From: a virus
Direction: 5' to 3' (one strand)
DNA length: 64,000 nucleotides
IMG/VR virus record: IMGVR_UViG_3300043446_005775
Location: 13,256-77,255 of that record
This document shows positions 1-30,285 of this stretch, piece after piece. The notes under the pieces are model-generated. The model made no database searches. It was given only the letters and a program-made list of their open reading frames with translations, and was not told the DNA's origin. The position numbers were made by a program, and so were the translations under genes. The stretch's first letter is position 1. Each line of letters opens with the position of its first letter.

Positions 1-3000
1 ATCATTGACACGAGCAATGATTCACAAGAATCAGTATCTTATGCAACGCACGACAGGACTGTGTACAGGGTTTTTTCGTTTGAAGACAAGGGAAAAAGGA
101 AGGTCGTCATCCGGGAACCCATTATTCCGGGAGCGATAGGAGGCACTCCTGCCGGGGAAGAGGCTAGCGTGGATACAGCTTCTGGAGTCCTTTTCCCAGC
201 AGATATCAATCAGGACTTTTCAACGCTTTGGCAATTTCTTGACTCTCGTGACAACAAGAGAAGCGCAAAGTCAGAATCAATTCTCAGTGCATATGTAAAC
301 CGGGTCACAGAAATCGCCAAGGCAAGGTGGGAAGAACATATTGCCGGAAAAGAAGCAATCGCGGGTCGGCCTCCCATAGTCCAGGCAAGAGAAGGCCTTG
401 TTGGAATAACTCGTGAATCAGGACTCAGTGGAGAGGCACATGCAGATGCCGCTCTGGGCTCCGAAGACAGGAGGGGGCCAGATGACGAGGTCGCAGTTGC
501 CAGGCGAATTGCCACACAAGCAGGCGAAGTCGCCCATCAAGCAAACCTTAGGGAAATTGAAAACAAAGTTCCTTCAACAATGGATGATGATCATTTAGAT
601 GCAATTATTCCAGAATTGGCAGGCAGTTACACGCCGACGGCCCCGGTCATCGAGACTGATTGGCAAGCAGAAGCCGCATCGCTGTCGGCGGACAAAATCC
701 AATCTGCCGCGGATGCAGTGGAGCGCGATCTGCTTAAGTCGCAATCTGCTGTTTCCTCAAGCGAGATGAATGACACTTTTGAAGATGTGAATATTCCGGG
801 ATTGAAAAAACGCAGTGAATTTCCGTCACTTGCTGCGTATTTCCAGGCGGTGAACAAGCGGTACCGGCAAAGCAAAGACTCCGTAGAATTGTTCAATTTG
901 AATATTCGTGTTTACAAGGCATTTATTGCCCAGAAAAATAGTCGAAGAATTGAAGCGTTCAGAAGATCAAAATTAAGCTTGCATCCGCTTGTGGAAGACA
1001 GTGCAAGAAGCGGAACGGCACGATTGCCTAATGTTTCAGCCACGCTGATGCAAATGGCTTCTTCCTCTTCAAAGGCAGACAATCTCGAAAGCATTGCCAT
1101 GGCCATTCCAGCAGTGGCAACCGCGGGAATAATTGACGTTCTTCGCACACAGCAAGGCTCTTCCGACTTTCAAAAAGAGGCTGGCGCGGCAATTGCAAAA
1201 ACCCTGACCGATTCTCTCGAATCCGCATTGAATCAGCGCCTGAGAGATGAGCATCTGATTGACAGGGCAGGGTTTGATACGGCGTTTCCTCAAATCGGCC
1301 TCAACAATTCCTCATCGGTGTTGTCAGGGTTCTTGAATGATACGCTGAAAGCCGCGATACCGCAGGATTCACTGGGTTTCAATGAGGAGTTCCGCACAAG
1401 GTTCTCAGATGAATATGAGAACAGGCTGAGAATCTCGCAGGCAGCTCTCTTGTCTGGCAATAAAGAAGCGATACAGGAAGCAAAAGATTCCATCTCTGAA
1501 TTTGGGAAAAAAGAATTCGTCATGACCAAGGACGAAGAAAAGACTCTTAAAGCCATGCGAAAAAAGGGAAATTCCTTTATCTCCGATTGCATAGCATGGA
1601 TGGAAAAAATTGGAAGAAGTGGCAAGCAATTCAAGCTACCGGGAAAAGACCCCGCAATTGTTTTATCGGAAGCGGCAGAGAAAGGCGACTTCGTAACAGT
1701 GTTGCGAGTCTTGGCGATGAATCTTGCCCCAAAGGAATATGTCACTCTCAACCGCGATGACAACGCAAGAATGCCTATTGAGAAGCCATCAGAACAAGAT
1801 CTGGCTGCAGCGAGGGAAAGAATTTTCCGCCTCGTTCATGATCTTTTGTCAAGTGATCAGTATGCAGACGATGTCAGAAAAGAAGTGCTTGCCACAGAGA
1901 ATTATAATCTTTATCTACACACAGCAACTGGTCTTTCAGAGCTTGTTGGAATCGGTTTCTCAATGGCTGACAGGAAGACAAAGGAATGGCACTTTAGTCC
2001 TATCAGGTACATGGCAAACGCCGACATTATGAAGTTTGCAAATGAAAGAGCAAAAGTTGCCATTGAAAATGGCCTGCGGGGTGACTACCTCTCCAATTAC
2101 GTACGCAATGCTCTTGCCAAGGAGTTCGATGGCGATCCACGCATCAGGGTGCCGGTGCTCCCCTCGCGTCGCCTAAACTCGGAGGGTAAGATCCACGTGG
2201 CTCTCTCTGTAGGAAATGAGGCGAAATCGATCAATATCGAATCCTATGCTATGCAGGCAATACGGACAGTGCAGAAAGGGATTCAGGATCAATTAGAGAG
2301 GCACCTCAAGTCAGGAAAGTCACGTGAGACATTCAAGGGGGATTATTCCAATCTTGGCTTGGATGAACCAAGAGCTCCGACAGGGTTGTTGCCAAAGCGA
2401 TTGCCAGATGATGCCCCTGAGAAATTGAGGGATGACTGGCAGCATGCGGCTGGGTTGTACAAGAAAAGCCAACGCGCGGAATATTACAAATCGCTTGACG
2501 CCAAAAGGCGAGCCGCGCTTGACATGTGCATTGGCAAAAACCCGGTGATTGATTCAGGTGATTTTGACTGGGGAAATGATGATCACAAGGCTTTGCTTGG
2601 AGATTGGCTATTTTCAAGATATCCGCAAGAGTCCTTGGGGAAACTCACGACGAGAAAAACGCAACAAGTCCCCGTTGCCGCGTACATGCAGCAATTTCTC
2701 CAGAATCCTGCTGATGGAGAATTGATCAGAAAGCTGGAGGCAGCCCTTGGAAACAAGCCTGTTGTCGTTGACAGGAAAACATTTGATCCCGCATTGAAGG
2801 CGAAGGCAACTCCTGAGATGCTGCTGGCAACCAATCCTCTTTGGTCCGCGTTTCTTTCGGCCAATGACCCGGAAAAATTGATCAATCATCCGTTTCAGCT
2901 TTCATTTTTCCATTCCATTTTTCAATCGGGATTGAAAAAAATAGACGGACAATCATTGAAACCTGTTGAGGGAAGAACCAAATCAGCATTTGATGAGGAA

Positions 3001-6000
3001 GTAAATCGCATTGCAGGCTGGATAGAAGGCCAGCTGGGAAGAAGAGCAATTGAAGCGGGAGCTGCAGACAAGAAAATCAAAGCATCTGAAACTGTGTCCT
3101 TTTGGTCACAAAATGCTGTCTTGGCAGAACACACCGCGGCTTTCCTTTCTGCTGGAAACGAAGAATTAATCAAAGAGATAGAGAGGCAATTGCTTCAAAA
3201 CCCTGGCGACCAGAAATTGCAGGACGATTTGAATGAACTGCAAATAATCCAGGAAGATTCCGAGAAGGATCCAAGCAGAAAATCGATTAGATTCACACGT
3301 CGGCAGAGGGATGCCAACAACAACGACCTGGGAGCAGTTGCTCCAGATATGTTAGCCGATTATGTCCAGGCAAAATCCCGAATCATGCGCGACTACTCGC
3401 CTGTGAATGATTTGTCAACCCATCAGCCAATTCCCGTGGGAATTCTTGCGGGTATCGTCAAGGACTCTTTGCTGAGGTCACGCAATCCATCCGATTTCAT
3501 TCTTGACTTGTCTCCGGCAATACCAAGAGATTCACAGGCAACTTCACTGGCAGCCATCGATTCCGTTGCCGCAGATGTGCAAAAAGAAATAGATCAGAGA
3601 AAATCACAACAGGAGCTTGAGCAATCAGCAATGGGGCCAGCGAGCCTTGTTCCAGTAACCGAATCGTCAGTGCGGGAAATCATGAGTGAATCAAAGAAAA
3701 AGGGAATCATTCCAATAGGAAGATCAAGTCATGCATATCCGGCAACGCTCAGGGGGAATCATGGAAAATCCAAGGAATTCCCTGTGATCTATACGTATGG
3801 ATTCAGCGAATTGGTGGAATCTCCCAGCATTGTGCATTTGATTAGCGATCCCATTGCTGCTTCCGCAGGAGCTCAGTACGGAGCAATTAGTTCATTGGGG
3901 GATGTGCAAAATGCAATAAGGACTGTCAGCGACTCACTCGGATCAATCGATGGCATGGATAGCGAAGCGCCGCTTCTTACCAGAAAACAGCACATTGACA
4001 TGCATGTCACTACGTGGATGCAAAAATTGCAGACTTCTGAAAATTTCGGAGAGATTGACAACATAATCAGGGAACTGAACAAAGTTGACCAAAACCAACA
4101 ACTTGACCTTTCTGACATGTATAGTTCTGATTGGACAAAGAAATTTTCAAAACTGCTAGAGAGATATTGCCAATCCAACGCCATAGCAATGATCACACCG
4201 GCTGATTCCGCTTACCCGCCATACCTGCTCAAGAGCCCCGGACGAAGACAATCCGGTGATGACGATCCTACTCCCTACACGCCCTCCGTGTTGTTTGTGA
4301 AAGGAAATCCACGCGCATTCCAACAAGTGCGCGATAATTCCGAGAGGGTTGTAACATGCATTGGCGTTGGAGAAGGAAAGACACACGGCGAGGATGTAGA
4401 GCACGGAAATGCCGTTTCTCAAAAAGCATGCGAAGTTGTCACGCGCCTTTCTTCGGCGTTCAAAGACAAGTCGTGGACTATTGTTACTTCATTGACTGGA
4501 GGCACAAACGATGCCATTCTTCAAACTGCGTTGCGATGGCAAATGCCAACAATTATCGTCGCTCCCTTTGGATTCAACACTTCTGCCGAATTGGGCTCAT
4601 TTGGCCCAAGATTCAAGGATGCAAAGAGCAGGCTAAATGATGCATTGGACAAAAACGCCGTTGTCATGACGGAATGCTTGCCTGGAATGGGAATGCAGAG
4701 ACCAAAAAATGGGGCAGGCAGGGATTCTGTTCGCGAACATCAGCGCTTGCTCGCGGAACTGTCTTCTGCGACGATTGTCATTTCGGCGACTGGCACTCGC
4801 AATTGGGTTCAGACAGAAGGACAACGGAAAGGAATAAGTCCTGAGTATCTCGCCGCGATGATTGACGGATCGAGCGTGTCGAAGGTATTGAACGCCAAAG
4901 TTGAGGATTCCATCCCGATCTATGTTGCGCAACAGGCCGCAAGGCAAAAGAGGGCAGTGTTCGTCTTGCGTCCTGACACAATTGTCAACCATGAAGCAGC
5001 CATGGCGGAAGGAAGAATGAGCGGAAATGTGCAGCTTACGTCATCTTCGATCAGGAATGTCTTTTTCCTTGATACCGATGATCCAAAAAAGCAGCTTGAA
5101 AAATACATCAGCAAAGCGCCAATAGACATACCTCCTGTGAGCAAAGCGCAATCCGCCGTGGAAGACATTCTGAATGTGGCGCAAATGAGCAGGCCGCAAG
5201 GCATGACCGACGAGGAATTTCTCGGCACATTGTCAAATGTCTTGGTGGCGAAGAATGCAAGGATGATTGCCACTACGCGTCATTGGCTATCAGGAATCAA
5301 AGCGCAAAGGAATCCTGACGGAAGCCCTGTTTCGGTATTGATTGATTCTCCAGATACCGACGATGCAAGCTTGCGAAATCTGCTTCTTGCAAAGGAAATG
5401 GGAGTTCACACAGTCGTTGTTCCCAGTCAAGCCATCTATTCGAGAACAAGGATGCCGGATGAATACGAAATCACAGAAGAAGGCCCTGTGCTGAAGAAAT
5501 TGAATTCACTCGATGACTGGGCTCCTCTCAAAAACAACGACAGGCTTTCTGGAACAAGCCTCATAGAACTGACATTTCGCGCAGACAACACGTCATCGGA
5601 TCCGTATAGATTGGCTTTTGAGACGCCGGAGCTGGCGTTTGCGGCGACGAGGTTTTCAACAAGGGCTGACAGGGAGGCGCTTGCCGGACTATCCAATGAT
5701 GACAGGCACTACAGGCAGAAATTAGCCAAGATACGAAAGGCAGAGCGAGAAAACAAGCTTTCCGCCATTCGTCCCGAGCAAGCAATCAAGGAAATGTATG
5801 AAATCCTGAGGCAAAAATTCAACTCGGAAACCTACAGGACCATATTGATGCATACTGGAACCGCAGATATTGTGCACGGAAGCGATGGGGAAGATTTCTG
5901 GGGAGTTCCAAATTTCATGTCTTTATCAAAAACATCATTGATCAAGACTGGCATTGGGAACAACATGCTTGGAAAACTCCTGATGCATATCCGTTCTTTC

Positions 6001-9000
6001 ATTAGTGCCTATCCTTCGAGCCGCCTTCCCAAGACTCTTTCTGATGATTCCTGCCAAAGAATGCTGGATGGCGGAAGAAAACGAGACGAAACGATGGCGT
6101 GGCATGAGGCGCTTGGCCTCATGGGGCTTTCAGACAGGGACATCACCCTTGCTCCAACCGTGCAAAGAGCCGTGGAGCCATTGAAGACCAAGGAGTTGCG
6201 CATAGGAATCACCGGCTCACGGGATCTCGATGGCTTGCTTACCGAAGACATGGTCAGGCATGCCCTTGAGCGGTCCATCAAGATCGCTCGCCCCGGCCCG
6301 AAGACCATTTCACCGCAGGCCGGGGCAGATCCCGCAAAGAAGCGCTCTGCGTGGGAAATGGCACATGGCATTGACATAGCGAATCCGGGACAAGCCAGTG
6401 ATGCATTGTACACGGCTCATTCCATCGTTCATGGCGGAGCTGCTGGAGTCGATTCCGTTGCTGCTGCATATTTTCGCGATCATAATTTTACGAATGTCAC
6501 AGCAATTCCCTATGAAGAACTCTCGACAAAGGAGGATAATTTTCACAGGAAAGATCGCACTGCAGGACACAGGAGAAACACCAAGATCGTTGCAGATTGT
6601 GATGTATTGGTTGCAATCTGGGATGGGAAAAGTGCTGGCACATTAGACGCAATCATGAAAGGCATACGAATGCAAAAACGCATGCTGATCTGGACGCCGG
6701 ATGGCAAAGGCGGGTTGGCCCTTCAGAAAATAAATCCGGCCGAAAAAGGAACCATAACATTGTCAACGCCCTTTTCCCCTGTTGTCAAGGAAGGTTCCGC
6801 AATACATGATTATCATCATGCTGGAGCAAATGTTGCCAGCTCGGAAGCACGTGCGTTTGCAGAAAAACTTAGAACCGCATCGCTTGTCTTGGGCCTGCAT
6901 CATTCTTCCCGGTACGCTCAAGGATTGTATAGGGATTCAAGGACGATTGGCGCACAAAAACCGATCATCGTTCTTGGCGGAGGCCAATCGCATCTGTCGG
7001 AAGGTTCTGCGGACGACCAGAAACGTGCAGACAGTGAGCTCCTCGGGTTCTTCCCTGCAGACCAGAAGTTGACGGAAGGACTCATTTACAAGGGTCGCCT
7101 CAATGGGGAATGGAATAATTATCATCATGTTTCTGATCCGGACAGTTATGCCGCTCTTGGATATCAATCAACAAGGAATGCAGACTCATTTGCAGCAAGC
7201 AATACTGCTGCGTCAAGGGCATTGCAGGAAGTGATTAACGCCAGAACACGTTCCGGATATTCAAATCTCACAAGATCCCAGTTGGCAGCAGGCTTGGGCG
7301 CACTCTTGGGGCTTGGTAGCGCAACAGCGTCGCAAGAGGATGTTAAATCGCATAGAATTAGCGATATCGACACGCAGATACTTGAGACAAGGCTTAATCC
7401 GCTTCTTGACGACGCCGAAAAACTGGAGAAGGTCAGAAGCCTTGAGGAAGAAAAGCAGAAAATTATCAATGAAGTGCCATCTCGGACGGTAGCATTGGCA
7501 AAAAGCGAGGATGGTCAGCGCGGATTGCAAGCCATGGGACATGGCGCACATCGATCCATTCCTTATGCGGAAGAGGTCGCGCCATCGAATCATCAGTATG
7601 CCGAAACCGCAGTCGTCTCAAGCGAAGCAATCCCGCACATATATGCATCAATAAGTATTTCCATGGCTCCCAGCAAGAAGAAAACAAACGTTATCGATTC
7701 AACCATTCATGTGATGCTTTATCACAGGGATGGACAAGATGATCCCATACCAGTGCAAAGCATGGTATACCACATTCCTGATTCTCCACTTGTAACCACG
7801 CTTGCGCAACCATCGGACGAGAGCGCCCATACCCGGGGAACAAAATCCGGAAGGTGGCTGGATGGATATGGCAACTACCGGCGGATCATTCGCATGCTTT
7901 CCGGAGATTTGGCAAAGGATTTGCTGGCCAGATATCATGCTGGATCAATTCACCAGGAAGTGAGGGCAATCACGAGAACCCGGGATGTTGCCAACAACAT
8001 TCCGGGAAGAGGTGTCGGCATTCCATTGCAAATTGCGCCGCAATCGGATGCGTTAACGAGTCTGCAAAGGCAAACATCGGCCACACCATCCGTGCATGCG
8101 TTTGATCCGGATTCAGTAGACTTGAAAAGAGTGAGCAATGGAGATCAATTATCAAAAGATGCGGTTGACAGAGGGAGGCCCAGAATAATAAGCCAGGAGC
8201 AGATAAATGCCTATGTCGGGCAATGCAGGGCACGGCGAAGCTGGCCTCCCGTTTCAGAAGCAAGGATTTCTCAACGGCAACGCGAAGACACGAGAGCAAG
8301 CACATTCAATCCCCGGTATCAATTCACCCCCAATGTGAGGAAAGGGGACAAATTATCTCCATTATTTACCTCGTGGACCGTCCTTGGTGGAGAGACGACA
8401 AAATTTGAGGCAAAACGTGTCGCGCAGGACAGTCTTCGTTCAGCGTACGGACAATCTCAAGCAACACTTGCGGAAAGATCAGCCATTCAAAATGCTGATG
8501 GAACATTCAAGGTCAGTGCGAACCCCCAGAAACCGACAACCACTGCACTTGCACTATTTGGTCCGGCAACACGGATGGTCAGGGGTGCCCCCATTGATCG
8601 AGAGACTGGAGGGAACGAGCCTTACAACATCAATATCCTTGCCCTGCTTGGCGGAAGTCCGTTACATGTGTCCCCAGGAACTGGCCATTCGCCAATAGTT
8701 CCCAATGATGCCGTTCATCCCGAATATGCGTATGTCGCCGGAGGGAACCTTTCATCAGCAATCACCGACTTGTTGAAAATTCCCGAGCAGGGGAAGATCA
8801 CCCTTGACGGATACTCGGATGCAGCATTATGTGTCGACCTTCAGCAGTATTTGCAACTTTCCCCAAAAGAGTCCTTGACACGCAAGCAACTGGAGCCTAT
8901 CGTTGAGGATCTTCTCCGTCGACGCATCGGAGGAAGAAAGGCGCTGGATCAATTGGATTACGGACGACCAGTTGATAACCTAGCCTTGGTTGCCGGAGTG

Positions 9001-12468: not shown

Positions 12469-12471
12469 CAG

Positions 12472-13137
12472 ATGAGCAACAAGGAATTAGGCAGCAAAGG
12501 ATATGGTCACTGGATGTTCCTTCCCGGAGGGCAGCTGTCTTATGTGGGAGGAGCAATGACCGCACTTCACCCTCATTATGAAATCAGGAAGACAAAGCAC
12601 AAAGTCAAGAAAATAACAAAAGCCAAGATGCATGAACTGGAATCAAATCATGATCACCAGATGATCATCGTTGGGGACAGCAGCGTTCCTCACAATGATC
12701 TTCTCGGATTGACTGAGGCGATCAAGAAAATATTGCGATCAAGCATGAATATAAAAAGGGGATCTTCCAGGCATGGAGATGAGCATGACATGGCATTTGG
12801 AAGCACATCCATCTTTGCCAACACAAGCAGGGACGCAGACGGCATGAATTTCGTCATCATTGATGGAAACGGACACCCGGTCATGGTTACCAGGCGCGAA
12901 AGCAATCATCGTGATCCAACAGCTTCGTTGCTTAACGATGTTGCCGAATATCTTGCGCACGAACACCACAGACTTGCATGGCACATTCATGACAAGGATG
13001 ACAATGAGATAAACGGCGCACCTGATCACATATTGCCAAACATGTCTGCGTTGCGTTGCTGGCCAGTGCATGCGTCACAGATGATTTTTCGCTGTCCACC
13101 GCTGATCGACACGGATCCCGAGGAAAGCGATGAATAG
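12472..13137 (+). CDS. Hypothetical His-rich protein
   Basis: 221-aa ORF starting 3 bp after the giant gene's stop and overlapping the next start; TGaTAAAAT box at 12444-12452; no recognised domain. Confidence 0.7.
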   Translation: MSNKELGSKGYGHWMFLPGGQLSYVGGAMTALHPHYEIRKTKHKVKKITKAKMHELESNHDHQMIIVGDSSVPHNDLLGLTEAIKKILRSSMNIKRGSSRHGDEHDMAFGSTSIFANTSRDADGMNFVIIDGNGHPVMVTRRESNHRDPTASLLNDVAEYLAHEHHRLAWHIHDKDDNEINGAPDHILPNMSALRCWPVHASQMIFRCPPLIDTDPEESDE

Positions 13138-16100: not shown

Positions 16101-17068
16101 CAGCGGCAAGCATTCGCAGGGATGCCGGGAAACCGCTTCTCGATGCTGGCGACATACTGGATCGCGCGATCCAGTATATCACGTCAAGTACGCTGTCAAA
16201 GGTCTCTCTTCAAAGAAAGAGAGTCTCAAGGACATTCCAGGATGTGGGAACTTTCTGGTCTGATATTGCCCCCAAGGATACCAACTCGGAGAAAGTCATC
16301 AGGTCGCTAAGAATTGGTAGCGACTATGAAATTTCATCCCGACCGATAAACAGAACCGCATTCTCGCCTGAATATCTCCTGAAGGCAGAGGCAATCATCA
16401 AGGATGTGAACAAGAATACCGATGCGTCATTTGCCAGAGCCTTTGGGATGTCCTATGATGGAAACACGGGAAGGATAGCGCGGTGCTTCCACTGGGCAAG
16501 CATCGATACGGTGCAGACCATATTCCTTGAGGGGATGATGCCATACGCATCCATTGATGGAAGAAGCATTTACGCTTCGGTCAACTCTGCATCGCCGCTT
16601 CCTGTTCCGCTCTATAACGATGATTACGTGGCTCTTGTCGTCTTCGATTACCATTGTGGCAATATCATCTCAAAGAAATCCCTTGAGCTCCTCAGCAAGC
16701 AATACGTGCAGTGGAAGAAAGCGAAATTGGGAACGTCCGTGTTTTCCCTGAGCCGCGATGAAAATGACTTGATTGATAACGCAAAAGTGGGGCTTGACCT
16801 CGGCTATGCATCCTCCCTTGATTCTCATGCAGGGAAAAAGATACTTTGCTGCTTCGACACAAACAGGATTGCGCTCATCACGGCAATGGCCGTTCCGATG
16901 AAAGTCGCGACAAAAGACCTGTCGCCAAGCTTCAAAGGCTCTCCCCTGGATTTTTATGGTCGCGCCCATACTGGTCAATTCCGCAAGATCGCCTTGCCTG
17001 AATTGTCCTATGAAGATTTGAAAATAGAAGAAGCGAATGATCTTTGGTTAGGTGACATCAATGAATGA
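13130..17068 (+). CDS. Large protein with an HD-superfamily phosphohydrolase and a C-terminal divergent PARP-like ADP-ribosyltransferase fold
   Basis: HD motifs: SIVDHLMES...AMLLHDVGR...GHAHYSA...IYHHDIF...YRCD (~15660-16080). ART-like pattern: RCFHWASIDTVQTIFLEGMM...DGRSIYAS...ALVVFDYHCGN...ILCCFDTNRI (~16480-16900), resembling the PARP pattern FHGT..I...GF..G.GIYFA...V.LG...EYVVF. The HD call is firm; the ART call is moderate. Confidence 0.7.
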   Translation: MNRIVKSIIEISDLPDDEESDSSKKQPASDYHHLWSKNTAAFMGIPIDEILPDCVSTSDKIAAMDRSFMNEFHGILSQSRQSFQMIDLLGKKILSYSKLYCYAGKKILRADDMRMMIDVFARSFGPEEMKTLAKLMRTTYKGIKREMDSLRVSKKLDFPYRHPSLSIHEDSIYPHGQGSYGQSHSWVYGKQSYVEYTNIMAKPEGKAIHPFLLIEMHLSKTGNNGLSVESGIIGQSFSIDGSGNIEKNTSNTLSYAWQDYLEEHMKSTSSWAQSTSKDGIKKASIEIAHPKVGIPWFSAVETSMDSQLMFDTEKNMQIFLGKRKKIGHLTYADTANDDAESRSRRLLEFLGRYIASEIVAYGYASHAGMSTPHCCEVPPNGNPWLSFRVSGRISSVPSISTGQSAYPDNYLSLPNDSEDQTNGYSPMRVDWTQFQKETYHIVVQPSVTRFMHDAFNYHVDVRILPNGSGAAVVLFSDSFNFIDEMRVTMPDPDRATVIGQVALANAVGIRNSPTYDDLGCKVLPVPIALSEQRTASRSSFSVGAELSVFESMPRDFISYHINSASTVMYKTSDMSQLRGNITNALKMFNTRTIDQNNLSSFISWNDFGSYCGEHFIENFNDSFMKSAHAYFTPASLQSLLKSMQQYFSAHQLNDFGIHDIPEVKEKNENTFVSLSPKTLLKTSSLSNGLSYAVYLVRHVPHQSVTESMIPIEKTMFNSLFSFYMTCVNPNGHEICVYQPSFNMKAGNYPRYASLADIVCGYFPDFICWMTNEGLRLHKSSQISSASYARIAEMHKVDPASVAKDIEMPFSPDASMISGQKEIVRRWITYHFPSLAIINQGGPRKGGSIVDHLMESALAVDTPRGKDNYSPSESLNDENVARLLRLAMLLHDVGRSFPSEGGVGPVEKGHAHYSAALARTILSQFYLKEREIAAIEKWIYHHDIFEKAVMGAYGTIDEASLHIAKIAETIDDAEILYHVYRCDTDFLGNYQTAASIRRDAGKPLLDAGDILDRAIQYITSSTLSKVSLQRKRVSRTFQDVGTFWSDIAPKDTNSEKVIRSLRIGSDYEISSRPINRTAFSPEYLLKAEAIIKDVNKNTDASFARAFGMSYDGNTGRIARCFHWASIDTVQTIFLEGMMPYASIDGRSIYASVNSASPLPVPLYNDDYVALVVFDYHCGNIISKKSLELLSKQYVQWKKAKLGTSVFSLSRDENDLIDNAKVGLDLGYASSLDSHAGKKILCCFDTNRIALITAMAVPMKVATKDLSPSFKGSPLDFYGRAHTGQFRKIALPELSYEDLKIEEANDLWLGDINE

Positions 17069-17723
17069 TAGGATGGAACGCTATGTCAATGATGACAAGT
17101 CCGCATTGATTGAGAAATACTCATCAATGATTCCCGTGAATATCATGAACAGAAGCAAGGATTCATCCACCTACACCATCCTGTTGGGAATAGAGCGGCT
17201 TGATCTCCCTAAACTGACATCGGGCGATGCCGTTGTTTGGTGGTATTGCATCCAGCTGAAGACGTGCAAGACGTGCGTCTTTCTTTCGGAAAAACAAAAG
17301 GAATTCCCGTATCAGATGTGCAACAATCCGAAGATATCCATTCGCCTGTTTGAAATCATTTCACGAAGCATGTCGACTTGTGATGAGTGGCATGCGGGGT
17401 TTTCTGAAGAGCGCATCGAAAGCGAACGATCAATGGGATATTCGGAGAACCTTTACGTTCTTGCGGCATTGATCAAGATGGGCCTCCGAGACATGCCGAA
17501 AAATATTCCCATACCTGCAATTGGAGCGGTAAAAATGTTACAGTTTTCCATAGAGCTTGCCGCTGCCGCGGACATCCATAACGCCATTGTTCATGAATAC
17601 GTACAATTGTGTGTCTTGAAGCGATCTGGACATGATATTGACGATGAATATTTTTCCGTTGTTTCACAAAGGGAATTGCCCTTGATACAAGGGAATAAAT
17701 TCAATACCAATCTGCTACTATGA
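17061..17723 (+). CDS. Hypothetical protein with a 4-Cys metal-binding cluster
   Basis: CKTCVF...MCNN...TCDEW; ATG at 17061 with AGGTGA upstream; overlaps the previous stop. Confidence 0.65.
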   Translation: MNDRMERYVNDDKSALIEKYSSMIPVNIMNRSKDSSTYTILLGIERLDLPKLTSGDAVVWWYCIQLKTCKTCVFLSEKQKEFPYQMCNNPKISIRLFEIISRSMSTCDEWHAGFSEERIESERSMGYSENLYVLAALIKMGLRDMPKNIPIPAIGAVKMLQFSIELAAAADIHNAIVHEYVQLCVLKRSGHDIDDEYFSVVSQRELPLIQGNKFNTNLLL

Positions 17724-17742
17724 AAATTGTCCGGAGAAGAAG

Positions 17743-20700
17743 ATGGTTCAGTTGACAAAAGAGACTTCCTGGTCGGGAAAATGGGATGAGGAAAATGACC
17801 GCGCTTCCCTGGAGCAGGAGAAGCGACGGATCGCTGCGTTATCAAAAAGAATTGGCAGGATGGTCACCTCGGCAGATTTCGAGCTTCTCGCTGGCCCGAA
17901 GGCAACGAGAGCCGGGATTGAGCAGGCGCTAGGGCAGACGCTTGACAGTGGCCCCAACGAACGCGTCGGACAGGCTGACCTCATGATCCTGCTTCGCCGA
18001 ATGGACAAGGCAATAAGGAAAAGCCTTCCGCTCGAAGCGCACGGCAACTCCGCGTTTCCAGTTCGTGATGAACGCTACCGTCGGCCAGATGGAACAGTAA
18101 ATGAGCATCAAGGGGAACATACGGATCGTTACCTTGCCGGGATTGCAAACAACCATGGCGAAGAGGCAGCAAATGAAGTTCGCCAAGCCATCCAGAGGGG
18201 CGATGTCCTGAAGGTTGCAAACAAGTACAAGAGAGATCGCGTTCAGGAGGGCACACGGGCAAGCGAAGACTCCGAATCCGATGATTGCGAGCATCCGGGC
18301 GGCGATATTGACGGGTTCATTCATCCCGAGTATCGAGCTAGAGGATGGGATCCGGACACGAAGGCTTTCCAGGCAGAATATGCCGGTATGGGGGTTCGTG
18401 ATTACTATTCCGAAATGTATTCACGCCTTTATCCCAAGGAAATTTCGGACCAGATCGTGCAGGGATTGTTTGGTGATCGGAATGAGGAGAATTCAAGGCC
18501 CCCCGACATGAAGCAAATACGCAGGGAGCGTCCCAGAAGACAGAAATTGGATATGCCCAGCTATTCCGATGATGAATGGGAAGGCCTTCTGAACCAAGAT
18601 CCCGGAAGACGCGCAGGGCGGCGGATCTATGGAGATGCTGAGCGGGATATCTATTCCAATGATCCAAGAGATGACCAGTCACCGGAGGATGATGAATCTC
18701 CCCGGGAGCAGCAATCAATTCCCACTGAAGAGAATCCCACTCCTGATGGTGGCCCGATTGAAGAAACAAGCACTGACGAACACCAGCAACATCGAAAGGA
18801 TCCCAACTTCGTCAGGATTGATGACCTGTCTCCATTCCGTGGTTTCATCAAGAAGGCGCGACAATATCTCAAGACAAAAAGCGATGTTGCTCCGGGAAAG
18901 CAATCCCATGCATTGTCACGTGCTCTTTTGCGCGGGGAACTCACAACAAGGGCGCTCCCTTCCATCAGGGCGCAGGCCACGAAGGAGGCTATCAACAACA
19001 ATGTCCGCTCACAGGTGAATCAGAACGAGGATCCTTTGGAGGGAATGAACAAGAGAACACTCGGGAAATACTACCGGATGGCCATACAGAGGATCTTTTC
19101 CGCGGCAAAAAAGCAAGCAGGAAACAGGAAGCGTGTTCAGCGCCAAGAACAAAGTCAGCGAACCAAGACATACATGAGAATGCCTGAAACGCGTCCATCA
19201 CTCACTCAGGAAGGTACAGGCAGGGCAGTTGCCCCTAATGCCTCCTCGTCCGTGTCCACGAACAGTGGCCCAATTATTCCTCGGGAATACAAGGATGCGT
19301 TGCAAGAATACAATGACGAGTATTACTTGCCTTACGACACTGACAATTTTCATAACCTGACGGAACTGGGCTTGGTCGATGAGGACGGGAATTGGGTAAG
19401 CAAAAAAATGGCACCCGTTCTCAAGGAAAATGGATTCTGGGAGATTGAATCCGTAGGCGAAACGCAAAAGTCCTTGATCGGCAGAATGCGCAAGGCTTTG
19501 CGAAAAGCCGAGGATGCGACGCGACCCTTGGCCGTGGAACATGTTGTCGTAAGTGATAAGTATACGTCACGGAAACCGACTTATCTTGATTCGTTCCCGC
19601 CTTCCGGAAGACAATCCTCACCTGATGACGGCGATGTCCGGGATTTGACCGGCCGTGGCTCAGATAACCAAAAGCTGGTGGATACAGCTGGACTCCAGAA
19701 CAGGCGTGACAGCTTTTGGCAAAGCGGATCAACGGCGCTGCCGAGTATTGCGCCAAACAGGTCGCCTGATCCGAACAAGAAAGATCGATTGCTCTCCTAC
19801 AATCGGGATACCGATGCATGGGAAGGAAAGCTGACGCGTGTTCATTCGGGAATTCTCCATCCCGCAGTGGCGCTTGGGAAATTTGGCTATGACTTGGCTC
19901 GGGCTGGCATTGCTGGCCTTACAACGGTTGATCTCAATGATGTGGGACACCTCGCCAATAATGCGGCAAAGGATGCCACCAGTGTCGCACAGGATACACT
20001 TGCCGGACTTGGCTCGGGACTCAAGCGCACAAAGGATTGGGTCAAGCAGACCATAGGGCCAAAACTGGGATTCGGACCGGATCAGAGCACTGCCAAGGAA
20101 ACAGTTGGGGACGGTGCCACGAATCCTTACGGCGCTGAGGTGACGGGAATTGGCGGGGAAGCGCCACACAACAGCATGAGCACTCAGGATCTTTGGGATA
20201 GTAGCGATCCCGTGCACAAGGCCGCACTCATTGATCGGCTCAGGCAGCATCCTCGCACTCGGGCCAAATGGGATAGATGGAATAACGCCGTCCCTGGACC
20301 AAGAAAGGATGCCGCAAGGCAAGAACTGAATGCAGCCGTGGCAGATCTGATCGAAGAAGAGAAGGCCGCTGCGCATAAAAATACACCCGATCAACAAAGG
20401 ATCGAGAGAGCACGGAGTCGGGAAGACGTAAGAAAGCTATCTATGGAAGAGCCGCAGTTACTTGCCGGAATCCTCAGCAACTGGATGAGGGCTGGAGATG
20501 CTGTGCCCGATCCAGGAGCTCCAAAAGATGCCAACCCTAGGTACCAGCGAACATTAACCAAAGATGAGCAGGTAAAACTCAGGCAAAAAATGCTCGAAAA
20601 TCCTGAGTTAGGAGCGTCCATTGCGCAATCATTGCTTGCTGGCATGAGAAAGAAGCCGACCACAACGCGTGATCCTAAGGCTCAGGCAGCACAAGACACA

Positions 20701-23289
20701 AAAATAGCATTGCTAACTAAAATTGCAAAAGGCGACCCCTCGTCGGGGTTGTATAACGCCCTCATGGAAATTATCAATCAGATGGCCACCGGCACTGGAG
20801 ACACGAATCCAAATGCGATTGACTCAACTACTACTGATTCAGCTGTTCAAGCAGAGCAAAACGCACGAATGAGCGCAGAGATTGACCTCAGAGAACACAG
20901 CAAAAATCATGGCGTCGAATCAAAACAATTCCTGGATGCCGCTAATCGGCATCCAGAAATACAAAGAATAGACGATTTGATCGATGAGAGAAAACAACAG
21001 ATAGGCGCAGCGGGAGGAGGGAACCGTGGAGCAGTACAAGAGCTGAGAGATACTTTGAATGTTCTTCAGCAAAGAAGAGCCGAAACCATACAAAGATTCA
21101 AGGAACAATTCAAGCCGAGGGCCCCTGAAGAGGCGCAGGCTGAACTTGACGCTCCTGTTACAGTCTCTCCTGATCTAGAGTCTACACTCAGAACCAATGG
21201 CGATAGATTTGGCGTTGACTCAGTGGAATTTCTTGATTCCGCTAATAACCATCCAGAAGTAAAAAATTTAAACGACTTGATTATTGCTCTAAAGCAGGAA
21301 CTAAGAACGATGGGATTGAGCGCGGATCCTAATGAAAAAGCGAAGAAGAAGAAAGATTTGGAAGCTCTTCAGGAACAAAGATCCGAGGCCATAAAAAAAT
21401 TGCAGGAACAATTCAGGCCCAAGACCGCTAAAGAGGTGACAGAAGAGGCAACAAGACTTATGGCTGGGGATGGTCCGCCAGTAAATGCAACTCCTGAGAT
21501 GAGGGCAGCGGCAGAAGCATGGTTGGCCAGTATGCTCGCTGGTCGTGGTGCACCCCCTGTTGCACCCCCTGCTGGTGGTGAACTCCCTGCTGGTGAACGC
21601 CCTGCTGGTGAACTCCCTGCTGAACGCCCTGTTGATGGTGCCGCTGTTGATGGTGCCGCTGCTGGTGAATCCGATGGTGTTAAACCCGCTGCTGCTGATG
21701 CCGCTGCTGGTGAATCCGATGGTGTTAAACCCGCTGCTGCTGATGCTGCTGGTGGTGTATCCGAGCCCCAAAACTTCTCCGGGCAAGACCTTAACGGTCG
21801 TGATTTCTCGGGACAGGATTTGACAGGTGCCAACCTGTCCAGTGCCAACTTGACCAATGCCAAACTGCCCAATGCCAAACTGTCCGGTGCCGATCTGACA
21901 GGTGCCAACCTGTCCAGTGCCAATCTGACCAATGCCGACCTGCCCGGTGCCAAACTGCCCGGTGCCCACCTGCGCGATGCCGACCTGCGTCGTGCCGACC
22001 TGACTGGGGCCGATCTGACCGGGGCCAGACTGGCCGGGGCCAAACTGACCGGGGCCAGCCTGACCGGGGCCAACTTCACGGATGCCGACCTGACTGGTGC
22101 CGACCTGAAGTATGTCGTCCTGCTGGATGTTAACCTGACTGGCGCCGACCTGACTGGTGTCTCCCTGTCTGGGGCAAACACGATGGGTGCCTACACGCTA
22201 GACGACTCTGGTAAAAAAGTTCGATTCGTTGCTCCGGTTAGCGGTGGTACCTCTACCACTCCTGCAGATGTTGAAAACGTTGCAAGAACGGCTTTGGAAA
22301 ATATGGGACCCGGTGGTGATGGCAAAACTGACGATCCTGTAGATCTGGTCAACGTCGATATAAGCGGCATGACTCCAGAGCAGTTGCAAGCACACAAGGA
22401 AGCCATAGAAAAAGAAATGGATGAAGAATCCAAACGGCTGGGGAATCAATTTGGTGGAAGATGGCATTTCGCACCCCAGGAAGAGAGAAAGAGACTAAAT
22501 GCCCTTTCTTTGGCGCATACGTTTGCCATAAGGGCGATCAACGACAGGCGTTCTACTCCTCCTCCTCCTGCCGCTGTTGAAACCGCTGTTGAACGCCCTG
22601 CTGAACTCACTCCTGAAAAGGTTGCAAGTGCGACTTTGGGCGATCTGGAACCTACTAAAGATGTAGTTGATGTCGATATAAGTGACATGAATGAAAGTCA
22701 ATTAAAAAGACACTTGAAAAACATAAACGACGAAATGACAAAGATTTCCGCAGAAATCATGAATCTTCCTAATCAATGGAAAAGCGCAAGCATGGAACAA
22801 ATAGCGAGGATCAATGCCCTTGAGGGGGCACGTGTGGATGCGGACAAAAAAGCAAGGAGTTTTAGACCTGTTGGAGTTGCGACAGCAGCAACACGTCAAC
22901 CCACGTCACCTGAGGAAATTGCCTCGCTCCTCAACAGAACCGGCGCTAGGCGTCCTGACACCGCCGAAAGTCTGCGCCCAACACTGGAGACCAGTCCTGT
23001 ATCCATGGAACAACTTGAGACGCAAGTGGCGTTACTTCCCGAAGCGGACAGATCAGCCATGCGGGAGTCTATCGCACAATTGAGAACTTATCAAGCTGCG
23101 GTGGACGCCGCGACGGATCCAGAAGAAAGAGCTGCTTACCAAGAAGAAGTAAATAGAATGATTGAGGCTTTGCGAACGAAGGGAATTCTGAAGAGTTCAT
23201 TATCAAGAAAAATGCCGAGGAAGTTCTCAAAGTCATCCCTGTCAAATGATCCCAAAAGACTCATCATGTCAATCTACAATTCATTATAA
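17743..23289 (+). CDS. Large repeat-rich protein (1,848 aa) with a pentapeptide-repeat domain; candidate internal virion protein
   Basis: Long ORF with GGAG upstream; A(D/N)LxG pentapeptide run at ~21772-22180; duplicated helical units; C-terminal ILKSS/FSKSS motifs. Confidence 0.8.
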   Translation: MVQLTKETSWSGKWDEENDRASLEQEKRRIAALSKRIGRMVTSADFELLAGPKATRAGIEQALGQTLDSGPNERVGQADLMILLRRMDKAIRKSLPLEAHGNSAFPVRDERYRRPDGTVNEHQGEHTDRYLAGIANNHGEEAANEVRQAIQRGDVLKVANKYKRDRVQEGTRASEDSESDDCEHPGGDIDGFIHPEYRARGWDPDTKAFQAEYAGMGVRDYYSEMYSRLYPKEISDQIVQGLFGDRNEENSRPPDMKQIRRERPRRQKLDMPSYSDDEWEGLLNQDPGRRAGRRIYGDAERDIYSNDPRDDQSPEDDESPREQQSIPTEENPTPDGGPIEETSTDEHQQHRKDPNFVRIDDLSPFRGFIKKARQYLKTKSDVAPGKQSHALSRALLRGELTTRALPSIRAQATKEAINNNVRSQVNQNEDPLEGMNKRTLGKYYRMAIQRIFSAAKKQAGNRKRVQRQEQSQRTKTYMRMPETRPSLTQEGTGRAVAPNASSSVSTNSGPIIPREYKDALQEYNDEYYLPYDTDNFHNLTELGLVDEDGNWVSKKMAPVLKENGFWEIESVGETQKSLIGRMRKALRKAEDATRPLAVEHVVVSDKYTSRKPTYLDSFPPSGRQSSPDDGDVRDLTGRGSDNQKLVDTAGLQNRRDSFWQSGSTALPSIAPNRSPDPNKKDRLLSYNRDTDAWEGKLTRVHSGILHPAVALGKFGYDLARAGIAGLTTVDLNDVGHLANNAAKDATSVAQDTLAGLGSGLKRTKDWVKQTIGPKLGFGPDQSTAKETVGDGATNPYGAEVTGIGGEAPHNSMSTQDLWDSSDPVHKAALIDRLRQHPRTRAKWDRWNNAVPGPRKDAARQELNAAVADLIEEEKAAAHKNTPDQQRIERARSREDVRKLSMEEPQLLAGILSNWMRAGDAVPDPGAPKDANPRYQRTLTKDEQVKLRQKMLENPELGASIAQSLLAGMRKKPTTTRDPKAQAAQDTKIALLTKIAKGDPSSGLYNALMEIINQMATGTGDTNPNAIDSTTTDSAVQAEQNARMSAEIDLREHSKNHGVESKQFLDAANRHPEIQRIDDLIDERKQQIGAAGGGNRGAVQELRDTLNVLQQRRAETIQRFKEQFKPRAPEEAQAELDAPVTVSPDLESTLRTNGDRFGVDSVEFLDSANNHPEVKNLNDLIIALKQELRTMGLSADPNEKAKKKKDLEALQEQRSEAIKKLQEQFRPKTAKEVTEEATRLMAGDGPPVNATPEMRAAAEAWLASMLAGRGAPPVAPPAGGELPAGERPAGELPAERPVDGAAVDGAAAGESDGVKPAAADAAAGESDGVKPAAADAAGGVSEPQNFSGQDLNGRDFSGQDLTGANLSSANLTNAKLPNAKLSGADLTGANLSSANLTNADLPGAKLPGAHLRDADLRRADLTGADLTGARLAGAKLTGASLTGANFTDADLTGADLKYVVLLDVNLTGADLTGVSLSGANTMGAYTLDDSGKKVRFVAPVSGGTSTTPADVENVARTALENMGPGGDGKTDDPVDLVNVDISGMTPEQLQAHKEAIEKEMDEESKRLGNQFGGRWHFAPQEERKRLNALSLAHTFAIRAINDRRSTPPPPAAVETAVERPAELTPEKVASATLGDLEPTKDVVDVDISDMNESQLKRHLKNINDEMTKISAEIMNLPNQWKSASMEQIARINALEGARVDADKKARSFRPVGVATAATRQPTSPEEIASLLNRTGARRPDTAESLRPTLETSPVSMEQLETQVALLPEADRSAMRESIAQLRTYQAAVDAATDPEERAAYQEEVNRMIEALRTKGILKSSLSRKMPRKFSKSSLSNDPKRLIMSIYNSL
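21545..21760 (+). repeat. In-frame low-complexity tandem repeats, including a perfect 45-bp duplication
   Basis: GCCGCTGCTGGTGAATCCGATGGTGTTAAACCCGCTGCTGCTGAT at 21655-21699 and 21700-21744 (AAAGESDGVKPAAAD x2), preceded by 15-bp CCCTGCTGGTGAAC-type units (PAGE[L/R]). Confidence 0.9.
21772..22180 (+). repeat. Pentapeptide-repeat coding array (15-bp periodicity)
   Basis: NFSGQDLNGRDFSGQDLTGANLSSANLTNAKLPNAKLSGADLTGA...; GCC(G/A)ACCTG recurs every 15 nt. Confidence 0.95.
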
Positions 23290-23307
23290 TTGTGCAAGGA
23301 GAAAGCA

Positions 23308-23958
23308 ATGGCATCGCTAGAACACAACATGTCGAAGTTGAAGGTCAAGGAAAAGGCAGAGAAGCTGGGCGTTGACCGGGCTGTGGCGTCCCATAGCGGC
23401 GGCCGTCGTTCTTCCAGGAAATCCTTTCAGGCAGTGCTGTATCCAAAAACTGCATCAAGGAACACGACCATTGAGCAGCGGGTGCGAAGCCTGCAGAAAT
23501 CCGTGCAGAATACGGCCGGAATAGGGCGCATCATGGAGAACATCGCCGACATCGTCGGTTCTTCGTTCAACTCTCCGATGCCGATGCCCATGACAAGTGA
23601 TGGGTCTCCTGATTGGGACGGCCCGAATGAGAACAGTTTTGTCATGATGCCAATCAACAACAAGAAGTCGAGCTTGCATGGAAGATTCGTGATTCTTCAG
23701 AAGCTGCCAAATGGAATGTACAAGATTGCTGAAAAGCCCTCTGGCAAGAAGAAGAAGGCCAAGGATGACGATGACGATGATGATCGTGACAATCGTGACA
23801 ATGATGAGGGAAAAGTCAGCAAGGGGATCATCACGGGTTCCCGGCAACAACGACGTGACAAGGGTGCCACACATCACTGGGCGCCGAGGGGTGTTTCCTC
23901 CCGCAGCCCAAGAACGGCAGGAAGGGGCCCCAAGGGGTCGAAGAGTGGGGCGCTCTGA
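23308..23958 (+). CDS. Hypothetical basic/acidic low-complexity protein, possibly head-associated
   Basis: ATG at 23308 with AGGAG; TATAAT at 23285-23290; SRKSF/LQKSV motifs; poly-D tract. Confidence 0.7.
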   Translation: MASLEHNMSKLKVKEKAEKLGVDRAVASHSGGRRSSRKSFQAVLYPKTASRNTTIEQRVRSLQKSVQNTAGIGRIMENIADIVGSSFNSPMPMPMTSDGSPDWDGPNENSFVMMPINNKKSSLHGRFVILQKLPNGMYKIAEKPSGKKKKAKDDDDDDDRDNRDNDEGKVSKGIITGSRQQRRDKGATHHWAPRGVSSRSPRTAGRGPKGSKSGAL

Positions 23959-24557
23959 TGCGCACCAGCAGGAAAGTCGGAGCGAGGAATGCCCCCGCCC
24001 TGACGCCGACTGGCTTGCGCAAATCATCTTCGGGAAATGGCGGCCCCAATGCCGAGAAAAGTCACGGCATCCCAACTGCGCTCCGCAGGGAAAAGTCTGG
24101 CCCAGCAGCGCAAAAGGCGACCAATATCGAAAACCAATTTCGATATGCGCTGCTTAGGAAAGGATTGGACTTCATCGAGCAAGCGAACATTGGCCCGTGG
24201 TCCTGCGATTTTCTCCTGCCCGATCACAAGATTGTCATCGAAGCTGATGGTGAATACTGGCATTCGATTCCGAAAACCATCATGAAGGACAGGAGGAAAG
24301 ATCTCTGGTTACGATCAAAAGGCTATTCGGTCTTGCACTTTGAAGGAAAACGCATATCTGCAGATCCGGATGGCTGCATAAGCAAAGTGATACAATTGAT
24401 AGAAAAGAATAAACTTTCCCTTGTGATTGAAGAAGAAGAAGAAGAAGAATTCATGGAAAAGCCGGAAATAGCCATAGCAAAGGAAACCGACGACGATGCA
24501 GAATACGAAGCTTGGCTCTCTTCCGGATCTGTCGGATCACGAGGAAGCCTTGGTTAA
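23958..24557 (+). CDS. Vsr/DUF559-family PD-(D/E)XK endonuclease
   Basis: TNIE...EQANIGPWSCDFLL...IVIEADGEYWH...KDRRKDLWLRSKGYSVLHF; TGATG coupling to the upstream gene; acidic C-terminal tail. Confidence 0.85.
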   Translation: MRTSRKVGARNAPALTPTGLRKSSSGNGGPNAEKSHGIPTALRREKSGPAAQKATNIENQFRYALLRKGLDFIEQANIGPWSCDFLLPDHKIVIEADGEYWHSIPKTIMKDRRKDLWLRSKGYSVLHFEGKRISADPDGCISKVIQLIEKNKLSLVIEEEEEEEFMEKPEIAIAKETDDDAEYEAWLSSGSVGSRGSLG

Positions 24558-24798
24558 GAAACTGAAGAAAAGTCTGCGTATTCCTCATATCTCCCACTCG
24601 GGAAATGCCGTGTGCACCAACCCATCCTGCAGGGCAAGAATGATCAAGTCCAATGCAAATCTTGAGGTAAATTCAATCTCACATCGCGCAGTCATGATTA
24701 CAGGAAAAACAAAAATCTTTCTGATCGGCAAATCAATCATTGCCGAATGTGTATGCGGAACAAGATACGACCTTGATGGCGCACTGAGTGAGGAATGA
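24550..24798 (+). CDS. Small zinc-ribbon protein
   Basis: CTNPSC...CVCG; probable TTG start at 24550 after GAGG; bridges the two neighbouring genes. Confidence 0.6.
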   Translation: MVKKLKKSLRIPHISHSGNAVCTNPSCRARMIKSNANLEVNSISHRAVMITGKTKIFLIGKSIIAECVCGTRYDLDGALSEE

Positions 24799-24799
24799 C

Positions 24800-30262: not shown

Positions 30263-30285
30263 GAAAGAAAGAAGGAGGATCGAAA

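Follow-up and report, generated by a model that had tools for sequence, protein, structure and literature searches.

The first 24,798 nt of a stretch of viral DNA 64,000 nt long, corresponding to bases 13256-77255 of the 77-kb IMG/VR contig IMGVR_UViG_3300043446_005775 (estimated completeness 47%), seem to belong, as its proximal part, to a cargo module about 38 kb long that stands at the start of the late structural operon in an uncultured freshwater myovirus. The module probably encodes polyvalent proteins that are packaged into the head, undergo trimming by the prohead protease and reach the next cell by injection along with the DNA, as a variant of the polyvalent or ejection-protein strategy that does without MuF; a probability of about 55% is given to this reading. 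The whole stretch is designated here as the window, its own genome as G000, the related contigs and loci as G001-G005 and L052-L054, and the run of genes upstream of the head genes as the block. As reconstructed, the module would comprise a giant protein ending in a UvrD helicase (gA), a second giant (gB) built around a DprA-type SLOG domain and extended in G000 to SLOG-NADAR-SLOG, a trio of 221-, 1,312- and 223-aa proteins, a variable slot occupied by a 1,848-aa pentapeptide-repeat protein, and a small trio of a 222-aa protein, a Vsr-like nuclease and a zinc-ribbon-like protein.

Eight co-oriented open reading frames (ORFs) on the plus strand fill positions 1-24798 of the window and run directly into the gene of a 490-aa protein (24788..26260). 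The tight packing of these genes upstream of the head genes, described in an earlier note on this DNA, was confirmed as a gap-free run. The extent of about 25 kb given there proved too short: gB starts 993 nt before the window, a second giant gene with UvrD lies further upstream, and the block reaches 13 kb beyond the window start and is at least 38 kb long in total. At the ORF junctions, gaps of at most 19 nt and overlaps of up to 62 nt leave no room for internal promoters. In a scan for promoters and terminators, the number of terminators equalled chance, with only weak hairpins 5' of the protease gene and 3' of the capsid gene. Because the block begins at a boundary of divergent transcription in G003 and G001, it is considered to open the structural operon.

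For comparison, 13 IMG/VR loci were retrieved with the capsid protein and five of their contigs were assembled; three more contexts came from a metagenome scan with the family of the ADP-ribosyltransferase (ART)-like domain of the 1,312-aa protein. Linkage of the block to the head module, on which the earlier note had made its reading depend, is kept in G003, G001, and L052-L054, all with the same order of giant(s), 221-aa, 1,312-aa, 223-aa, variable, 222-aa, Vsr-like, 100-aa, and 490-aa genes followed further on by protease, scaffold, and major capsid protein. No separate ORF of the 223-aa family was called in L052, and only the proximal part of the block is kept before the head genes in G002 and G004. 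The genome size is put at roughly 165-185 kb; G001 is 184 kb long and 97% complete. Head proteins are 75-92% identical to those of G003 and block proteins 25-61%, with the exception of the Vsr-like nuclease (82%) and the 100-aa protein (94%), both of which adjoin the head genes. Domains of the block were gained, lost, and reshuffled between relatives according to Pfam and sequence comparison: G001 has giants of 2,566 aa (with UvrD) and 2,222 aa (with DprA-type SLOG and no NADAR), and the giant of L054 has the DprA-type SLOG alone. Fast divergence together with such domain turnover is, as far as sequences can tell, the pattern of an arms race.

The two giant proteins account for most of the block. 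According to the contig, gB is 4,486 aa long with a mass of 493 kDa; its orthologue in G003 has 4,272 aa and 26% identity, and just three long homologues were found among 5.8 bn clusters. In gA, a complete UvrD/PcrA helicase near the C-terminus is the sole Pfam domain, and about 3,000 aa have no assignment. Pfam was run on whole proteins and on slices of 600 aa, and the presence of SLOG and NADAR in gB, proposed earlier, was borne out by scores above the cut-offs for the DprA-type SLOG and NADAR. The DprA-type SLOG (PF02481) is much stronger in the giants of relatives (109 bits in G003, 79 in G001, and 121 in L054). The best PDB sequence match of NADAR is YbiA (2B3W), a weak one (E 0.67) in which the alignment covers the C-terminal motifs. 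The second SLOG of gB gave LDcluster4 (E 5.7e-4) and YAcAr (E 8e-3), both under the cut-off; in the G003 orthologue it is clear, with LDcluster4 at 41.5 bits, above the cut-off. The SLOG-NADAR-SLOG cassette is 34% identical between gB and G003, where the scores of 109, 46.7, and 41.5 bits all clear the cut-offs. NADAR was found in the G003 orthologue and in protein P0003; Pfam detected none in the SLOG giants of G001 and L054, and the giants of L052 and L053 gave no Pfam match whatsoever. By these profiles, NADAR is confined to the sub-lineage of G000 and G003. No shorter proteins with the cassette were found by a word-based search.

About 80% of the residues of the giants, roughly 6,500 in the two together, have no match in Pfam, PDB sequences, or ESM Atlas. 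The search of ESM Atlas with the C-terminal 1,837 aa of gB returned nothing usable, and PDB sequence searches with gB and the 1,312-aa protein returned nothing; a designed repeat protein and Colicin D (E 0.13) among the PDB matches were judged spurious. The four large proteins contain neither the zincin motif HExxH nor the virion RNA polymerase motifs D.DGD and DFD.D of N4/crAss type, and BLAST revealed no paralogy or internal repeats among the block proteins.

Orthologues of the 1,312-aa protein over its full length are present in G003, G001, L052, L053, and L054. The earlier note had assigned to it HD plus a PARP-like fold. The HD domain passed its cut-off, and the fold was supported by an AlphaFold2 (AF2) model with a predicted local distance difference test score (pLDDT) of 84.7, for which the top Foldseek matches in PDB are all PARP catalytic domains (E about 2e-3, probability about 1). 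In VIA, the model gave Z of 7.0-7.5 over 126-136 residues at a root mean square deviation of 4.0-4.5, with the inactive PARP13 and RCD1 as the best matches; Z is middling yet uniform across 433 ART chains. In a viral structure library, ART-PolyVal proteins, a MuF-protease fusion protein, and an iridovirus PARP-like protein were the best matches. The catalytic residues are degenerate, however: the window protein has H81-Y108-D133, H and Y are replaced in close orthologues, and a conserved H-Y-E triad was found neither in the window protein nor in those orthologues. The distant homologues P0014-P0027 retain H-Y-E (YHGT / GxGxY / xExH). In this lineage, the domain is probably not a transferase and would bind ADP-ribose rather than transfer it. 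The N-terminal 850 aa were modelled at pLDDT 62, and as Foldseek and VIA returned only generic helical or weak PUR-like matches, no fold was assigned to them.

An exhaustive HMMER search among 1.84 bn representatives found only 28 homologues of the ART-like family, and 22 sequences drawn from it were aligned. HD lies upstream of the ART-like domain in 14 of these 22, Phage_Mu_F is present in five, and ART-PolyVal in one. P0015 and P0017 carry MuF in the N-terminal third and, at the C-terminal end, the ART-like domain with HD (detected in P0015 only). A metagenomic protein of 2,513 aa (L060:2-7543) joins HD and ART-like domains of the 1,312-aa family to a segment that resembles the N-terminal part of the 1,848-aa protein (47% identity), and modules have therefore recombined between polyvalent proteins.

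In the 221-aa protein, which precedes the 1,312-aa protein, twelve His/Glu/Asp positions are invariant across six orthologues; it has no PDB or Pfam match (PDB was searched with the family profile). Its histidines are unusually dense and invariant (HPH, AHEHHR, PDHI) and matched none of the known families. A new small metalloenzyme is one possibility; another is a chaperone acting on the 1,312-aa protein, the start of which overlaps the stop of the 221-aa gene. The overlapping 221-, 1,312-, and 223-aa genes are probably translationally coupled.

The 1,848-aa protein and its counterpart of 1,314 aa in G003 have the N-terminal 740 aa or so and the extreme C-terminus (..YNSL) in common and differ in the middle; the pentapeptide region is absent from the G003 counterpart. 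One contig from a lake RNA library has 37 other letters in place of 322 nt of the pentapeptide-repeat region (window 21863-22186). A related strain with a different repeat length is the probable source, or else the repeat of another organism. Members of the 222-aa family begin with a leader of 6-69 aa, which is followed by an invariant K-S and a conserved core; the G002 member is joined to the N-terminus of a 765-aa protein, and the family profile found nothing in PDB. The Vsr-like nuclease has orthologues in G001-G004 and L052-L054. In the 100-aa family, the cysteines of CxxxxC...CxC are conserved together with the K-S sites. Pentapeptide repeats and Vsr-like nuclease, both named in the earlier note, were recovered with strong Pfam scores; for the metal-binding proteins, invariant His clusters (221-aa) and cysteines (100-aa) stood, as a pattern in the sequences and no further.

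A putative signal that block proteins and head proteins have in common is the motif [LIVMF]-x-K-[SA], which was counted and compared with composition shuffles. The scaffold-like protein has an excess with z 6.3 in the window and 6.7-10.4 in four relatives, and none of 500 shuffles reached the observed count. The excess in both the protease and the 100-aa protein is z 3.9, and the sites AK|SQGF and FK|SF of the protease are conserved. That most block proteins carry the motif, as was observed before, is trivial for proteins of such length; what exceeds chance is its clustering at the termini. Of the 335 proteins in six genomes that are 150 aa or longer, eight contain at least two sites within their last 50 aa, and seven of the eight are block proteins. 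Among proteins of at least 700 aa, such tails are present in 7/15 block proteins and 0/62 others (Fisher p 2.7e-6), where the orthologous pairs are not independent. The terminal tails of the large block proteins are also basic (p 0.004). An N-terminal M..hydrophobic-x-K-S was found in 8/36 block proteins and 11/299 others (p 2.6e-4), often in block proteins without a C-terminal tail. The scaffold (z 6-10), the LNK|SFDM of the capsid protein, the K-S of the 222-aa protein, and the tails of the block support a link between head and block proteins through a putative K|S-type signal, although several orthologues lack the tags.

The steps by which the module would act can be put as follows. The block proteins are taken to be made together with the head proteins and would then enter the prohead, where the prohead protease would trim them at terminal hydrophobic-x-K|S/A sites, the signal being common to the N-terminus of the capsid protein, the scaffold, and the protease itself. 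They would leave with the DNA at infection and act in the cell before phage transcription. There, protecting or processing the incoming DNA would fall to the helicase, DprA, the nuclease, HD, and a possible DNA-mimic repeat, and NADAR and SLOG would remove or bind ADP-ribose-type modifications and signals. The basic K-S tails of the giants and the leader with K|S of the 222-aa protein might further serve as a tag for the loading and release of cargo, which the prohead and its protease would recognise independently of MuF. This is a tentative proposal, which we would sooner doubt than accept. The C-terminal cargo peptides of encapsulin are comparable to such a tag.

The concept of such proteins is already published, and the statement of the earlier note that the combination was not a described system was wrong in kind. 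Precedents are the polyvalent proteins, for which packaging and injection were predicted with MuF as a head-internal anchor (PMC5512222), and SLOG/NADAR genes in virion-morphogenesis neighbourhoods that are described as 'likely packaged into the head' (PMC9503650). The block is a MuF-less, probably terminally tagged version and not a new kind of system. Like the polyvalent proteins of Iyer 2017 (PMC5512222), which are very large, fast-evolving combinations of unrelated enzymatic domains among the morphogenesis genes of terminase-portal phages, the block proteins unite several enzymatic domains (SLOG, NADAR, and SLOG in gB; HD and ART-like in the 1,312-aa protein; UvrD in gA), and their genes form an unbroken stretch with those of protease, scaffold, capsid protein, and tail, both in the window and in contigs of five relatives. 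The HD and ART-like pair is also found in MuF-containing polyvalent members. Different are the lack of a MuF/gp7-like anchor, of a zincin-like peptidase, and of a methylase-helicase dyad, the split over at least nine genes with conserved small partners, and the proposed signal, a terminal K-S tag. The text of Iyer 2017 does not mention SLOG, NADAR, pentapeptide, or Vsr (PMC5512222). In Iyer 2022 (PMC9503650), SLOG fused to NADAR among morphogenesis genes was likewise proposed to be packaged into the head against immunity based on ADP-ribose (ADPr); those domains are typically standalone, whereas here the cassette lies inside a protein of 4,486 aa and is not conserved across the lineage.

Similarity to other systems is looser. 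DarTG1 NADAR antitoxins and Thoeris ThsA SLOG belong to the same superfamilies, a resemblance at domain level only; the block has no toxin partner and no SIR2/TIR context, and its first SLOG is of DprA type and not of ThsA type. The Dar system of phage P1 is a multi-gene capsid-linked set protecting incoming DNA, with DarB (about 2,255 aa) containing a methylase and a superfamily 2 (SF2) helicase. The block is similar as a multi-gene set with a giant helicase-bearing protein; its helicase, however, is of superfamily 1 (SF1) UvrD type without methylase, and no sequence relationship to DarB was found. The prohead proteases of T4, phiKZ, and SPN3US cut after Glu. In T4 (IPs and Alt) and in phiKZ and SPN3US (E proteins), the cargo has a motif in common with capsid protein and scaffold, loses terminal propeptides, and is ejected with the DNA; the ejection proteins of SPN3US are cut by the prohead protease (PMC10052503). 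For the block proteins, cleavage is predicted to follow Lys, and many of the tags are C-terminal. The Felix O1 paper holds no information on Lys-specific cleavage.

Several observations weigh against packaging and injection. The MuF domain (PF04233) is absent from G000-G004, and the sole recognisable portal, that of G002, is about 75 kb away from the head module, with none adjacent. Motif density is at chance in the two giants (13 against 11.8 expected and 12 against 9.6). The internal sites of gB are mostly unconserved between orthologues, the exceptions being those at about 2832, just after the cassette, and at 4447, the latter common to G003 and P0002 and not P0003. Because of this density and poor conservation, maturation of the giants into many pieces is unsupported. 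Terminal K-S tails are missing in the G001 giants, the G003 orthologue of gA, P0003, and the giants of L053 and L054. Cleavage after Lys is deduced solely from the enrichment of the motif. One copy of each large protein would sum to about 1.3 MDa, all of which must pass through the tail. Finally, the phage lineage is uncultured, and 50,697 phage records contain nothing that matches the block, the 490-aa protein, or the 1,312-aa protein as DNA or protein.

Some of these points would suit accessory proteins that stay in the cytoplasm, unpackaged and merely co-transcribed with the head genes, and that serve late in counter-defence, DNA metabolism, or packaging support, for example in the resolution or protection of concatemers. 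The conserved recognisable domains are DNA enzymes, nucleases beside packaging genes are common in phages, and the missing MuF domain, adjacent portal, and terminal motifs of several orthologues fit as well. We nevertheless consider this unlikely, as housekeeping DNA enzymes are not typically giants that evolve fast and shuffle their domains, the HD and ART-like pair is found in MuF polyvalent proteins, the terminal K-S clustering is specific to block proteins, and proteins expressed late would miss the time for counter-defence unless they travel on to the next cell. The giants could also be mainly structural internal proteins (an inner body, a DNA-spooling core, or an ejection conduit) with the enzyme domains as secondary passengers. 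Most of their length indeed has no enzymatic signature, and phiKZ/SPN3US-type heads contain huge masses of internal protein. The structural proteins are, however, 50-90% identical between relatives and the giants, of 2,200-4,500 aa, only 25%, and no repeats or paralogy typical of inner-body families were found; this explanation is very improbable.

The earlier note had seen the block as a dedicated NAD+/ADP-ribose arsenal that senses, writes, erases, or soaks up signals. The SLOG-NADAR-SLOG cassette and the ART-like fold are real, and viral co-occurrence of SLOG, NADAR, and Macro domains was proposed to counter ADPr signals (PMC9503650). Such a dedicated role is quite improbable, nonetheless. 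NADAR is missing from the SLOG giants of G001 and L054, and the giants of L052 and L053 are without Pfam match; the first SLOG strongly matches DprA (up to 121 bits), a DNA-binding family; the ART triad is lost in the 1,312-aa family; UvrD, Vsr, HD, and pentapeptide repeats have no ADPr link; and 80% or so of the residues of the giants have no assignment. The conserved recognisable functions (UvrD, DprA, HD, and Vsr-like nuclease) are, to judge from their families, DNA-directed, and the mix is as much DNA-centred as NAD/ADP-ribose-centred. Because NADAR is lineage-specific, the ART-like domain degenerate, and the conserved functions DNA-directed, the label of a 'NAD+ arsenal' is too narrow and the specificity of that theme was not upheld. 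Packaged and injected polyvalent proteins of mixed function are the reading we prefer.

Features of the block and the adjoining head genes (positions in nt of the window).
Feature	Position	Strand	Remarks
gA (giant 1)	upstream of window		at least 3,965 aa, 5' open, runs off contig start; UvrD helicase aa 2985-3766
94-aa ORF	upstream of gB, outside window		between gA and gB
gB (giant 2)	1..12468	+	last 4,155 of 4,486 aa; ATG 993 nt upstream of window (contig 12263)
DprA-type SLOG of gB	4168..4791	+	PF02481 30.2 bits on slice, cut-off 29.6
NADAR of gB	5578..6000	+	PF08719 40.4 bits whole protein, 42.8 slice; cut-off 35.1
Second SLOG of gB (cluster4 / YspA-like)	6412..6696	+	phrog_289 E 3.5e-11
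Basic C-terminal tail of gB	12337..12465	+	two sites IAK|S, FAK|S; conserved end KRTG-LLL...YDKITYR
221-aa His-rich protein, putative metal binder	12472..13137	+	stop overlaps start of next gene
1,312-aa protein	13130..17068	+	N-terminal 850 aa without assignment, then HD, then ART-like domain
HD phosphohydrolase domain	15767..16027	+	PF01966 23.5 bits, cut-off 22
PARP-like ART fold	16358..16906	+	AF2 model, Foldseek, VIA; triad H-Y-D in window protein
223-aa conserved partner protein, no function assigned	17052..17723	+	orthologues in G003, G001, L053, L054
1,848-aa protein, variable slot	17743..23289	+	two hydrophobic-x-K-S sites in last 35 aa
Pentapeptide-repeat region	21775..22422	+	PF00805 E 2.2e-37
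222-aa protein	23290..23958	+	variable leader, invariant K70-S71, conserved core (PMP..DW....PINNKKSSLHGRFV)
Vsr/DUF559-type PD-(D/E)xK nuclease, 199 aa	23958..24557	+	PF04480 E 1.2e-11; basic Gly/Ser-rich N-terminal leader
100-aa Cys4 (zinc-ribbon-like) protein	24496..24798	+	three conserved hydrophobic-x-K-S sites; z 3.9
Three conserved genes, 490, ~225, ~195 aa	24788..27563	+	between block and protease
Prohead protease	27724..28704	+	phrog_1028 E 1.3e-29; C-terminal third rich in hydrophobic-x-K-S sites
Scaffold-like acidic protein	28715..30262	+	7 motif sites vs 1.0 expected
Major capsid protein	30286..32214	+	phrog_752; N-terminal ..PLNK|SFDM invariant in six genomes

Downstream of the block, the middle one (about 225 aa) of the three conserved genes matches phrog_1004 'virion structural protein'. 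No recognisable portal was found among the three; the 490-aa protein was considered as a portal and rejected, as PF04860 matches only a 645-aa ORF elsewhere in G002. The prohead protease has a His/Ser/His pattern, and a profile search gave no PDB or Pfam match for it. Opposite the scaffold gene, a 519-aa antisense ORF (window 28733-30292, minus strand) is 67% 'conserved' in G003; most likely it is a by-product of the biased, conserved scaffold sequence and not a gene. The capsid protein has an insertion rich in Ser/Thr/Ala at about aa 330-560; relatives are 533-642 aa long, and the identity to G002 and G005 ends at about aa 365. Tail sheath, two tube paralogues, and tail genes follow further downstream of the capsid gene. 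The tube paralogues are in tandem (window 37656-38330 and 38361-39029), 59% identical, and both match phrog_985; there is a single copy in G001, G002, and G005.

A tail-fibre-like protein of 1,019 aa (window 56627-59686) is 91% identical to that of G001, with 69-72% for its neighbours (53829-56597 and 59690-61159) and 49-65% for the head genes. This suggests a recent exchange of a receptor-binding gene between diverged phages. The N-terminal 300 aa of this protein, 48% identical, are in common with the product of the preceding 922-aa gene. A class II B12-dependent ribonucleotide reductase (E 4e-212 to 7B9Q) was identified at L040:15282-17876 (G004), G002:105978-109715, and G001:133266-135821. 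In G002 and G004 it is inside the head module, between orthologues of the 250-aa and 241-aa genes. The G002 enzyme is about 380 aa longer, which may be due to an intein or insertion.

Several studies of freshwater and lake metagenomes contain near-identical DNA. In the metatranscriptomes of four lake runs, contigs were found for the protease, scaffold, and capsid genes and for a small part of the 490-aa gene, and none for the block. This gap says nothing about the expression of the block, because the contigs come from strains 90-97% identical and the block diverges faster.

The block is a real, well-delimited, and conserved feature, and its interest lies mainly in the hypothesis of the terminal tag and in the large amount of unassigned protein sequence. 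It defines a rare HD and ART-like pair and a conserved set of small partner proteins. If its products are packaged, it would be a clean natural example of a very large injected multi-enzyme cargo with a simple address tag. If the K-S tag is true, a myovirus could load polyvalent enzymes of half a megadalton and swap payloads behind a constant tag, which could explain the exchange of payloads in arms races and could be reused for loading proteins into capsids. The block also suggests that, beyond the erasers of ADP-ribose, DprA-type SLOG and UvrD domains may belong to the toolkit of large phages for the first minutes of infection.

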